A stretch of DNA of 58,561 bases. It comes from a virus (lineage: Duplodnaviria; Caudoviricetes). The stretch spans positions 1 to 58,561 of IMG/VR virus record IMGVR_UViG_3300018429_000004. One strand, given 5' to 3'. The first letter of the stretch is position 1, and each line of letters starts with the position of its first letter. Made by a program: the position numbers. This document shows, piece after piece, positions 36,001-39,000 of this stretch.

Positions 36001-39000
36001 GGTCAAGGCGATGAAGAAGAACCGCGAAGGCAAGGTCCGCACCCGCGACCGCCGCAAGGCTGACAAGAAGTTCAAGAAGGGGAAGTGGTGATGGTGGCTG
36101 ACTTCTTCAAGGCCATTGCCGACTCAGTCGCCGAGGGTCTCAGCAAGGCGATGGTTGACCTGCTGCGCGAGGCCTTCGAGGCGGGTCGCGACTACCACTC
36201 TTGGAGTCAGTCCGACCTCTCTGAGCAGTCGAGGGAACCTGACTTCGATGAGTGGGTCTCCAAGCGTTTCAAGTAAGAGGAGGAGAAGCATGAGTGTCAA
36301 GAACCTGTGGAACCACTCAGACGAGATCGACACCAAGGCATGGGTCAGCATCTGGATGATCCCGCAACCGGGCATCTGGCCTTTCACTGCTGAAGATGTC
36401 ATCGACCGGCTCAACAACTGGTTGGAGTGCCTCGGCGCGGAGTTCCGATTTGAGCCGAATCCGGTGGTGAGCAACGACCACTACGCCCTGATGCAGGTGC
36501 GCGACCACGTCCAGGCTCTCGCGGTCACCGCGCTGGGCCGGATGGCGGCGCAGACCCTGCTCGATGAGAAGGGATAGATCTATGCGAGTCGTCAGGGTCA
36601 AGGCTCGGTACGTGCACGGGACCGGTCGGAACACGCAGATGTTCCACATCATCAACCTCGACCAGGTGCGGACGTGGAGAACGCACAACTACACCAAGGA
36701 CAACGGCGAGGGGTGGGTAATCCTCGTCCTCCACACCGCGTGCGGCACTCGGGCGTCGATGACCAGCACACCCAACCTGCACGACTCCATGACCCTGGCG
36801 ATCAACCCGCCGAAGGGTCTCAGGCCCTGCCCCCGGTGCTTCCAGCGCTGGGAGGCACTGGGCAAGCCGCTCACGGCAGACCAATGGCGAGACAACGTCA
36901 AGACGTTGCGGGTCATGACCGGCCACGCCAACCGAGCAAAAGCGAGAGGGAACCAGCGATGACTGAGGAAGAGGAGGTAAGAGAACTTCAACTCACGATC
37001 GCCCGGCTGGAGGGTGAGCGAGAAGCAGCCCAGCAAGCCACCCGCGAGATCATGAAGGAGCGCAACACCTGGGCCCGCGAACTCGCTGACATGCGTGGCG
37101 AGCGGGACGACGCACGGGAGAACCTGGACAACCTCCGCTCGTTGGCTGCCGAGCAGCAGGGCTTCGACCTCGCTCGGATCGTGAACCTGGAAGGAGTGAT
37201 TCGGGACTTCCTGGAGGAGTACGAGGCCTCCTGCCCCGACCGGTGGCCGGGCGGGATCAACAAGATGAGAGGGGCGTTGGAGGATGACTGAAAGGGAGGA
37301 AGACCCAACCATCGAGGAGATTCAGCGAGTCGGCCGGTACTGGGCCAAGGTGAAGATGCTCACCTGCGAGCACAGCAACGGGATTGCTGTTGATCCCGAC
37401 GGGATGACCTGCCCCGACTGCGGACAGCCGCTGCGGTTCCTGTCAGAGATCCAGATCGAGGAACTACGGTCGGTGCCGAGAAGCAGTTGACAGCCTACCC
37501 CTAGTGTAGGGTAAGGTCGTCTCTCGTTGGGCCGGGAGCGGGGGCGCTCCTCGACATACTTCCGGCCCAACGGCACAACTCAATAAGCGCAAACCCCTTA
37601 GAGTTCAGGGAGACGGTGAGCCGATCTCGCGTCGGTTATCTTTGGTGATTATCCCGGCGTGAACTAACTTGTTCACCGCCACCCTGAGCGCTAAGTGTGT
37701 CGAGCCGAATGTGTTCGGTTATCGCCTTCAGAGCGGGTGACGCAGGTTCGAATCCTGCCGTCTGACTTAGGTCAGGCGTCGTCCAGCGGCCTAGGACCCC
37801 TAACCCCGGACGCAACAACTTGTTCGACATCTTGCGCTGATGTGAGCCGAAGAGTATTCGGTTATCAGCCAAAGCAGCGGCTCACGCTGCTTTTCTGGGA
37901 TCACCTGTGAGGGCCCCGCCCGGATCTCACCCTTTGCTCACATCTCTAACTTCATATGCTGAGCCGAAGTGTTTCGGTTATCGCAAATCTGTAAGTTGCG
38001 GGTTCGAGTCCCGCCGTCCTGGTTAGCCGGGTCGTAGCTCAACTGGTAGAGTGACAGACAAAACCCCCGGAACACGCTACTTGTTCAGCAGACTAACTTC
38101 GATGCGAGCCGAAGAGTATTCGGTTATCAATGGTTCGATTCCATTCCGATGAGCCGAAAACCTCATCGGGATCCCCAACCGGCAGGGGAAACCCGGATCT
38201 CACCCTTTGCTCGCGTCACTTCTTCGGCCAGCACGGACCCCTCGTGCTGGTCTTTTTTCTATCTGAAAGGAACCACCGTGGAGTTCAGTACGCAGCATGT
38301 CGCAGTCAAGATCGGGGGCTGGACCACCCTCGATATCACCCCGGAGGATGCGCCCACCGTTACCTTCTCCGGCAACCGCCGGAAGTCGGTGCGGCAGGCC
38401 CGCGCCATCTGGTCGCGCACCCTGGACGAACTCCTGAGGGACCCCTCCTACCCCGGCTACCTCCGCATCCAGTGGTCCGGGGTGAACGTGCTGAAGGACG
38501 GCTCGTTCGGAGCCGACTGGCGCGAGGAGTACCCGCGCCTCGCCGACGCCGAGGCTCGCCGTCAGATGGATGAGATCGAGGGCTGGCTCAAGGCCCAGAT
38601 CCTCAAGGACCAGGCCGACGCCGTCGAGGCGCTCGGTGCCCGCATGCGCAACATCACCTGAGAGGAACCATCCATGAACAGCATCTACAAGGACTACGTG
38701 AAGGGCCGGAGCGCCACTCCGCAGACCGAGCAGGCGAAGCCGGAGCAGGTCAAGAACTCGGCGGGGGGCTACGTCTTCAAGGTTGACGAGGCCACAGCCA
38801 TCGACCGCTTCCTGATCCTCGGCTCGGACAAGCCGACCTACTACGCCTCGGCGCAGACCCTGACCCGCGACAACGCCAAGGCGGTCGTGGCGTACGCCCA
38901 GGGTGCGCAGACCGGGCCCGACCTCGTCGAGCGCATCGTGGAGATCAGCACCGAGGGCCGAGCCCCGAAGAACTCCCCGGCCCTGCTCGCGCTGGCCATC

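Follow-up and report, generated by a model that had tools for sequence, protein, structure and literature searches.

What the circularly permuted tRNA-like inserts of a phage genome are, and what they might do for the phage, is the question raised by IMG/VR virus record IMGVR_UViG_3300018429_000004 (Duplodnaviria; Caudoviricetes), a complete genome of 58,561 bp with direct terminal repeats that was analysed over its whole length and is called the window here. An earlier reading of this DNA (the original prediction) had described three different tRNA mimics between positions 37697 and 38217 and proposed that they came from different tRNAs and present distinct elbows, possibly to titrate different elbow-binding enzymes or sensors. 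That stretch runs from the start of the second to the end of the fifth of five units that lie head to tail on the + strand, in the non-coding stretch between a small open reading frame (ORF; 37284-37490) and a Ro60 gene (38674-40332). We consider it highly probable that 37614-38217 comprises five tandem Y RNAs that are co-transcribed, processed and bound at a common handle by the phage's own Ro60 protein. The evidence that we observe consists of gene order, sequence motifs, folds with conservation or covariation, and likeness to known families; the units belong to the described Y RNA family and are not a new kind of element.

The unit bounds were taken from the terminal helices. The five units are listed here with the evidence for each, which includes a covariance model (R1) and a related contig (G001), both described below.

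37614-37678, + strand: unit 1, a predicted minimal Y RNA consisting of the handle only, with the motif variant GCCGAT (RNAfold)
37697-37830, + strand: unit 2, a predicted Y RNA of YrlA type, its D arm of tRNA-Glu type (R1, Rfam YrlA, ARAGORN after permutation, covariation); GNCGAA motif at 37704-37711, handle 3' strand at 37820-37830
37839-37944, + strand: unit 3, a predicted Y RNA without a tRNA-like domain (RNAfold; present in G001)
37957-38090, + strand: unit 4, a predicted canonical YrlA-type Y RNA (R1, Rfam YrlA, ARAGORN cloverleaf after permutation); GNCGAA motif at 37963-37969, 5-bp anticodon-stem analogue formed by 37988-37992 with 38054-38058
38101-38217, + strand: unit 5, a predicted compact Y RNA whose handle helix TTCGG/CCGGA directly carries the T arm, the acceptor stem and the D arm

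Every unit opens with GAGCCGA(A/T), followed by 4-7 bases and then TCGGTTATC, and ends with ACTTGTTC (units 1, 2 and 4) or CCCTTTGCTC (units 3 and 5). RNAfold closes all five with a terminal bulged helix (z = −3.65, −2.84, −3.57, −2.73 and −4.04 for units 1 to 5, respectively), in which the 5' strand GAGC-C-GAA(G) has ACTTGTTC or CTTTGCTC as its 3' partner: in this core GTTC or GCTC lies opposite GAGC, a bulged C follows, and TT(T C) lies opposite GAA(G). Beyond the core the bases vary from unit to unit and are matched across strands (GGT/ACC, GTGTC/GACAT, GATGT/ACATC, TGCT/AGCA and GATGC/GCGTC), and the outer helix carries compensating changes on both strands, both between units and between the phage and G001. 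Within the handle, unit 1 adds an inner TCGG/CCGG helix and is 92.5% identical to its G001 copy, unit 3 has 9 bp, a bulged C and 4 bp around internal hairpins, and the minimum free energy (MFE) structure of unit 5 is exactly the four-way junction of handle, T arm, acceptor stem and D arm.

The motif GNCGAAN0-1G, given by Chen et al. 2014 (PMC4201824) as the probable site at which bacterial Y RNAs bind Rsr, is present in units 2 to 5, as GCCGAATG in unit 2 and as GCCGAAG in the other three. The Rfam Deinococcus_Y_RNA model aligns with unit 3 across both strands of the handle at a sub-threshold score (26.8 bits, E = 0.026). Ro60 begins 457 nt downstream of the array on the same strand, within the distance of about 4 kb on the same strand that is used as a criterion for YrlA. 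These features indicate that all five units are probably Y RNAs with a Ro60-binding handle that share one candidate promoter and one terminator, and that units 2 and 4 are most plausibly YrlA-type Y RNAs, with unit 5 as a compact relative.

The order T arm, loop-closed acceptor stem, D arm that the original prediction had assigned to units 2, 4 and 5 was confirmed for each of them on the + strand:

37742-37758, + strand: unit 2 T arm, GCAGG/TTCGAAT/CCTGC
37759-37778, + strand: unit 2 acceptor stem, 8 bp with loop TTAG, followed by TC
37781-37797, + strand: unit 2 D arm, GTCC/AGCGGCCTA/GGAC
37998-38014, + strand: unit 4 T arm, stem GCGGG/CCCGC with loop TTCGAGT
38015-38034, + strand: unit 4 acceptor stem, 8 positions including one T-T mismatch, with loop TTAG, followed by TA
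38037-38052, + strand: unit 4 D arm, GCTC/AACTGGTA/GAGT
38129-38145, + strand: unit 5 T arm, AATGG/TTCGATT/CCATT
38146-38169, + strand: unit 5 acceptor stem, 8 bp with an 8-nt loop, followed by GA
38172-38189, + strand: unit 5 D arm, TCCCC/AACCGGCA/GGGGA

As the original prediction had stated, no CCA follows the 3' strand of any of these acceptor stems. ARAGORN called 0 tRNAs in the native order. The TTAG tetraloop said to be common to units 2 and 4 is real, though it is not retained in G001.

To score these domains we used R1, a covariance model built from 11 canonical modules with 8-nt D loops from other Ro60 loci, none of them from the phage or from G001; a MAFFT alignment of 38 modules had misplaced the 3' strands of the D stems and was set aside, and R1 was built instead. 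Run over both strands of the whole 58.5-kb genome with filters off, R1 found exactly these three modules, with 55.5 bits for unit 4 (E = 2.6e-13), 30.8 bits for unit 2 (E = 1.1e-6) and 28.6 bits for unit 5 (E = 4.3e-6); the next-best hit scored 13.2 bits (E = 0.057). A pairing scanner, which was written with the modules already known, also found these three alone in the genome, and 100 Markov-simulated genomes gave a mean of 0.47 hits with a maximum of 3. The Rfam YrlA model (RF02553) matched unit 4 at 35.5 bits (E = 8.5e-6 in 1.1 kb, and 1.1e-7 in another scan) and unit 2 at 25.1 bits (E = 0.0087). Together with the R1 scores and the ARAGORN calls described next, these sub-threshold matches support the tRNA-like domains, and the claim that their topology is that of YrlA holds.

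Re-permuted forms were also compared with shuffled controls, with ARAGORN in place of tRNAscan-SE. Each unit was cut in its acceptor loop, its ends were joined and introns were allowed. All three permuted domains were called, units 2 and 4 at default and unit 5 only after the threshold had been relaxed with -ps; units 1 and 3 gave no call when permuted. Of 1000 dinucleotide shuffles per unit, none was called at default for units 2, 4 or 5; with -ps, one shuffle of unit 4 was called and none of units 2 and 5. No meaning attaches to the isotype labels that ARAGORN printed for permuted units 2 and 4, since pseudo-introns of 40 and 56 nt span the "anticodon loop" there.

Given these calls, the units might be circularly permuted tRNA genes, or debris of tandem tRNAs, that are either processed to real tRNAs or non-functional. 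Their topology does resemble that of permuted pre-tRNAs, and ARAGORN accepts the permuted forms. Moreover, the Rfam tRNA model scores 27.3 bits in the native order on 37703-37758 (threshold 29), with the head hairpin of unit 2 taken for a D arm and the hairpin after it (loop CUUCAGA) for an anticodon arm, ahead of the T arm, and this reading fits the dimeric-tRNA origin model for YrlA (10.1101/312249). However, a 7-nt anticodon loop is missing; ARAGORN accommodates units 2 and 4 only with "introns" of 40 and 56 nt, and unit 5 only by an ad hoc fit; CCA is absent; and the apparent anticodon hairpin of unit 2 is not retained in G001. The permuted tRNA genes of red algae and archaea share with the units here a loop-closed acceptor stem and RNA ends in the anticodon-stem region, but they have a real anticodon loop, which the units lack, and mature by splicing-type enzymes for which, according to the same source, no bacterial examples are reported (10.1101/312249). 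Since the handles, the linkage to Ro60 and the covariation all argue for selection as Y RNAs, we give a tRNA-gene or debris reading almost no credence.

At the level of tertiary contacts, inspection identified U8, A14, GG, TTCGAAT and G15:C48 in unit 2, and U8, A14, GG, TTCGAGT and A15:U48 in unit 4. The alternation of the Levitt pair between A15:U48 and G15:C48 is described for YrlA as well (PMC4201824). The D and T stems of YrlA are nearly invariant according to the same source (GCGGG/CCCGC and GCUC/GAGC), whereas three different D arms stand in one row here: unit 4 agrees with the family in both stems (GCGGG/CCCGC and GCTC/GAGT) and carries its T and D sequences, unit 2 deviates (GCAGG/CCTGC and GTCC/GGAC) and has a tRNA-Glu D arm, and unit 5 deviates too (AATGG/CCATT and CCCC/GGGG) and is without the variable region and U8. 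This comparison does not support the idea of distinct elbows. Elbow contact is made by GG in the D loop and TTCRA in the T loop, and these are identical in all three modules; the differences lie in D stem and D-loop size and leave the elbow itself the same. A second GCCGAA lies at 38153-38158 (within GAGCCGAAAAC) in the acceptor loop of unit 5; the corresponding G001 loop is CTTCAAACC and does not retain the motif.

The three D arms do differ as the original prediction had it, that of unit 2 being Glu-type, that of unit 4 canonical for YrlA and that of unit 5 unlike any tRNA. An exact search with the unit 2 D-arm 17-mer, GTCCAGCGGCCTAGGAC, found at least 120 bacterial loci, mostly in Actinomycetota. 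Among the matches listed, 115 of the 121 bacterial occurrences lie in tRNA-Glu (113 with anticodon UUC and 2 with CUC), one lies in a tRNA called Ala(tgc) by ARAGORN and five lie outside tRNAs; these five comprise three T-acceptor-D modules (loci L147, L209 and L212), one tRNA-Glu cut by a contig end and one unrelated occurrence. In 12 viral loci the 17-mer falls five times in called tRNAs (3 Glu, 1 Ala and 1 Leu), six times in permuted YrlA-like modules and once in an unclear context. The D arm with the preceding TC is found exactly in 64 of 349 reference tRNAs, a set enriched for the 17-mer, and 62 of these are tRNA-Glu. The T arm of unit 2 has no exact match among the 349 (best edit distance 1, to mixed isotypes). 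The likeness to tRNA-Glu thus seems to be confined to the D arm and the preceding TC and not to extend to the T arm or the anticodon.

The D and T arms of unit 4 equal the Rfam YrlA consensus, in keeping with the common type claimed for its D arm, and resemble those of many tRNAs, hence they are not isotype-diagnostic. The D-arm 16-mer of unit 5 was found in tRNAs in 0 of 120 genomic occurrences, which is the level expected by chance, and is at best four edits away from any of the 349 reference tRNAs, so no tRNA parent can be named for this unit. Overall, the original prediction's reading of these inserts is supported in part. In two loci, an IMG/VR contig (L044, 751-826) and a Kitasatospora genome (L161), ARAGORN assigned Ala(tgc) to a tRNA with a Glu-type body, the anticodon loop of which is unusual and lacks U at position 33.

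G001 is an IMG/VR contig of 59,273 bp with a Ro60 gene that is 81% identical and an array that is 78% identical to those in the window, and it shares the candidate promoter, the leader hairpin, the five units and the terminator. Compared by blastn with 50,697 phage records, the array had no match, searching IMG/VR by way of Ro60 yielded only 4 distant loci, and none of the 80 loci in a metagenome scan exceeded 47% identity, so G001 is the sole close relative in the collections searched; a unit-5-specific pattern in IMG/VR also found G001 alone. The handles of units 4 and 5 are 77-100% identical between the two phages (96-100% for unit 5). Unit 4 has 16 of 17 T-arm and 14 of 16 D-arm positions in common with its counterpart, and its acceptor stem, with only 13 of 21 positions identical, is nevertheless paired in both. 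Similarly, the acceptor stem of unit 5 is identical at 10 of 24 positions yet paired in both (CCGATGAG/CTCATCGG in the window vs. CTAGCAA/TTGCTAG in G001), and its CCCC/GGGG D stem is retained. Unit 2 shows a different pattern: its 5' handle is 96% identical, its interior only 49% and its D arm 4 of 17, and G001 holds a canonical module at this position (GCGGGTTCGAGTCCCGT; TAACTCAATTGGTAGAGT). The effector module has thus been exchanged on a conserved handle.

The elements that flank the units, and the neighbouring genes, are as follows:

37487-37492 and 37512-37517, + strand: candidate promoter, TTGACA and TAAGGT with a 19-nt spacer, read from the sequence
37525-37572, + strand: leader hairpin ahead of unit 1 with 14-nt arms, an inverted repeat that is 93% complementary, conserved in G001
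38226-38258, + strand: predicted intrinsic terminator closing the array, an 11-bp stem with 7 G-C pairs followed by a T run, conserved in G001
38278-38661, + strand: ORF of 127 aa between the terminator and Ro60, with no family match in Pfam or PHROG
38674-40332, + strand: Ro60/Rsr orthologue (TROVE ring and vWA domain), the presumed protein partner

G001 retains the TTGACA and a TANNNT hexamer of the candidate promoter. The Ro60 gene matches Pfam TROVE (6.8e-42), vWA_Ro60 (1.4e-47) and PHROG 850, "RNA-binding protein" (1.8e-83); tblastn with Ro60 finds matches in 367 phage records, the best at 48% identity. The 127-aa ORF is missing from this place in G001, where Ro60 begins right after the terminator. 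A domain search of the phage genome found neither RtcB nor a CCA-adding enzyme.

The position of the array and terminator directly upstream of Ro60, and the start of the G001 Ro60 gene just past the T run, would also fit an array that acts mainly in cis, as a leader that controls Ro60, for example through Ro60 bound to unit 5 deciding whether the terminator forms. In this regard, the 5' strand of the unit 5 handle (38103-38115) can pair with 38221-38233, which overlaps the 5' arm of the terminator (13 nt, 85%). Nevertheless, in the MFE structure of 38095-38265 the Y RNA fold is retained along with the terminator, so the alternative pairing is not favoured; the 127-aa ORF stands between terminator and Ro60 in the window; arrays elsewhere sit either upstream or downstream of Ro60; and an attenuator needs far fewer than five complete handle-bearing units. 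A mainly cis-acting role is, in our judgement, very improbable. Complementarity between unit 5 and the terminator is also seen in G001 (GCCGAAGAG with CTCTTCGGC) and could link Ro60 binding to read-through.

Y RNAs are known to bind Ro60 through the handle and to tether it to PNPase in Deinococcus and Salmonella (PMC4201824; 10.1101/312249), and in Thermus phage phiLo a phage Ro60 and two upstream Y-like RNAs are reported to form a complex with host PNPase (PMC12135203). The tRNA-like domain of YrlA adopts an L fold and is modified by TruB and DusA, and the YrlA of M. smegmatis, with an acceptor stem of 7 bp, is cleaved by RNase P and receives CCA (PMC4201824; 10.1101/312249). For the array described here we envisage that a single transcript very probably begins at the promoter near 37487, extends as far as the terminator (38226-38258) and would afterwards be cut into single RNAs, the handles of which would be bound by the Ro60 encoded downstream. 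Early co-transcription is suggested because the array heads a rightward block that continues into a primase/polymerase gene. The part that varies would be the effector, with plain, YrlB-like hairpins in units 1 and 3, the canonical YrlA tRNA-like domain in unit 4, the same layout with a tRNA-Glu-type D arm in unit 2, and a compact domain placed directly on the handle in unit 5. By analogy with characterised Ro60/Y RNA particles, these RNAs may gate the Ro60 ring and tether Ro60 to host factors, for which PNPase or proteins that recognise the tRNA body are candidates, and in this way the phage might, early in infection, remodel the decay or repair of host RNA.

Several observations weigh against the interpretation of the array as five co-transcribed, Ro60-bound Y RNAs. 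No match in the window reaches an Rfam gathering threshold: the best unit scores 35.5 bits against the 69 bits required for RF02553, and unit 5 is not matched by that model at all. However, the modules upstream of Ro in mycobacteriophage Catera and in Cashline score only 36.1 and 42.2 bits, respectively, which indicates that the 69-bit threshold excludes phage members in general. In unit 5, GG and TTCGATT are present, but U8-N9 is replaced by GA and 15:48 has no Levitt partner, and ARAGORN accepts this unit at the relaxed threshold only; its G001 counterpart has one T-stem mismatch and an R1 score of 18.2 bits (E = 1.5e-4 in 3.4 kb). In unit 1 the motif is GCCGAT and thus an inexact version of GNCGAA. 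With a single close relative, the covariation for units 1, 3 and 5 comes from two sequences. Transcription, processing, Ro60 binding and any tethering are inferred, and a sigma-70 scan, which permits spacers of 16-18 nt only, made no promoter call at 37487-37517. Finally, the terminator, which is present in the MFE structure of 38095-38265, lies between the array and Ro60, so their co-expression is uncertain.

The Glu-type module of unit 2 has counterparts elsewhere. An alignment of 10 Glu-type modules was assembled from unit 2, the 8 of 12 non-tRNA occurrences that passed the pairing scanner, and one module (L065) from a survey of Ro60 loci; L147 was excluded because of its irregular acceptor stem. 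In this alignment the paired fraction of cells is 95.5%, and 11 of the 20 pairs show changes on both sides, which was equalled by 0 of 500 shuffles, and slid controls are only 37-49% paired. Although the invariance of the D stem arises by construction and acceptor pairing was partly a selection criterion, the covariation in the T stem and the anticodon-stem analogue is independent of the selection. Judged by these patterns, the Glu-type module appears to be a recurrent YrlA subclass.

The survey covered 87 Ro60 loci (445 kb, many with cut flanks). After removal of its long-loop hits and of those that overlapped called tRNAs, the pairing scanner found at least one module in 35 loci, at least two in 14, three in 6 and at least two kinds of D arm in 10. 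R1 gave 93 hits at E ≤ 1e-3, some of which are tandem true tRNAs, and 93 of 93 are on the Ro60 strand. The array form and the mixing of modules are common in these data, though unannotated. Compact modules placed directly on the handle, like that of unit 5, were seen also in L085, L113 and L097. Canonical and Glu-type modules share one array in 9 of the 12 Glu-type loci (the window, L046, L047, L048, L049, L050, L212, L065 and Xanthomonas phage Olaya). Of the other three, L042 is cut at its edge, L209 has no canonical module at E ≤ 0.01 and the second module of L147 is of another type. Ro60 or a divergent Ro60 lies downstream of the Glu-type array on the same strand in L046, L047, L049, L050 and Olaya. 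Among the papers listed by our literature searches, none was on Glu-type or mixed-type YrlA arrays, although the supplementary tables of Chen et al. 2014, which list 355 YrlAs in 254 bacteria and 22 phages (PMC4201824), may include such variants. We regard the recurrent Glu-type subclass as the only modestly new point of this analysis.

It is conceivable that these modules form a distinct and widespread subclass, with a D arm and positions 8-9 copied from tRNA-Glu and with a place beside canonical YrlA in Ro60-linked arrays of phages of Actinomycetota and of Xanthomonas, that recruits partners other than those of canonical YrlA, but we hold this to be rather doubtful. If it were true, the canonical module would address a generic reader of the tRNA body and the Glu-type module a factor specific for the body of tRNA-Glu; Ro60 particles would then come in isotype-specific flavours, with compact modules like that of unit 5 as a third. 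Wang et al. (2018) expect that YrlA has as its effector a tRNA-binding protein that recognises the elbow with a degree of sequence specificity (10.1101/312249), and for this reason the coexistence of canonical and Glu-type modules merits pull-down experiments.

The same expectation lends some weight to the related proposal of the original prediction, namely that the three modules are decoys that titrate different host tRNA-binding enzymes or sensors. On this view unit 2 would be directed at a tRNA-Glu-specific factor, either besides or without the tethering of Ro60. One operon does hold three different D arms, unit 2 reproduces the D arm of tRNA-Glu exactly, together with the TC before it, and the joint presence of both types in 9 of 12 Glu-type loci suggests separate jobs. 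Most isotype-specific enzymes and anticodon nucleases, however, need the anticodon loop and CCA end that the modules lack, and G001 manages with a canonical module in place of the Glu-type one. In Olaya, the 19-mer of the Glu-type D region (at least 119 loci) lies in tRNA-Glu in 112 of the 127 occurrences listed, but the genomes listed for these matches (80 titles) are mostly Ignavibacteria and none is Xanthomonas, which leaves host-matched mimicry unsupported. A decoy function therefore seems unlikely to us, and a row of Y RNAs bound by the phage Ro60 is the interpretation that we prefer.

Comparable rows of two to four units occur upstream of Ro60 in four deposited phage genomes, which have other handle sequences (e.g. 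GGCCGA...CGGTTAC) and no detectable blastn similarity to the window. In Catera, the unannotated row consists of a minimal unit, a YrlA and another minimal unit, and in Cashline it consists of two different YrlA modules. In Mycobacterium phage prophiGD43A-5 (MW584167, L377), four T-acceptor-D modules lie upstream of Ro at 2562-3154, and the first of them (R1 at 2614-2665, 62.0 bits) is overlapped by an annotated "tRNA-Thr (tgt)" (2562-2640). In Olaya (MW802488, L376; 2294-4229), three or four unannotated tRNA-like modules, canonical ones and one Glu-type, precede a "hypothetical protein" (2910-4229) that is a short divergent Ro60 (TROVE 1.1e-10, vWA_Ro60 1.8e-7). The same blastn match as for Olaya is listed for six more phages, Xylella phage Usme and Xanthomonas phages Bolivar, Usaquen, Alcala, Fontebon and Soumapaz.

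Among characterised systems, the closest likeness is to the YrlA RNAs of Salmonella Typhimurium, Mycobacterium smegmatis and mycobacteriophages, which are also adjacent to Ro60 on the same strand, carry GNCGAAN0-1G near the 5' end and have first the T arm, then the closed acceptor stem and then the D arm, as in units 2, 4 and 5 (PMC4201824). Both strands of the handle can be recognised here, unlike in the RNAs of Salmonella and M. smegmatis, where this is so for the 5' strand alone (PMC4201824). The bulged, end-to-end handle is shared with Deinococcus radiodurans Yrn1 (RF01053) and metazoan Y RNAs; unit 3 aligns end to end with Yrn1, though far under the 80-bit threshold and with unrelated internal domains. 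Compared by description, phiLo Yrl1 and Yrl2 also have the CGAA motif and lie upstream of the phage Ro60, but they are only two RNAs, and the main text that describes them uses neither "tRNA-like" nor "YrlA" (PMC12135203).

Ro60 and Y RNAs form a conserved RNA-surveillance system, to which this locus adds a clean and compact phage example with five Y RNAs. The tRNA-like domain appears less uniform than described in PMC4201824 and 10.1101/312249, given that a Glu-type D arm and a compact form recur beside canonical ones. Should the modules differ in the host factors that they bind, these arrays would offer a ready-made panel for the discovery of such factors by pull-down. In deposited phage genomes the arrays are unannotated or mis-annotated, and the tRNA-Thr feature of prophiGD43A-5 may be an example.

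Three further observations concern the heads of Y RNA units and their surroundings. Conservation of the head across phyla was considered and rejected: the pattern GAGCCGAAN{4,5}TTCGGTTATC had 28 bacterial matches, compared with about 35 expected by chance (18 fixed bases in 596 Gb), and only 2 of the 28 are Y RNAs (L025 and L027, both in metagenome-assembled genomes of Actinomycetota with Ro60). In L047, L048, L050, L209 and L212 (Streptomyces genomes and IMG/VR contigs), the heads read GGTGCGCAGG...ACGG(A/T)TAC instead of GNCGAA...CGGTTAYC, and the adjoining Ro60 match is only about 30% identical in L047 and L050; these units may represent a different pairing of handle and protein. Lastly, true tRNA genes lie directly upstream of a YrlA-like RNA and Ro60 in L006 (100-2800), L004 (2695-2767) and L003 (2615-2691), and L006 has 17 hits to the Rfam tRNA clan in a row (16 tRNA and 1 tRNA-Sec).

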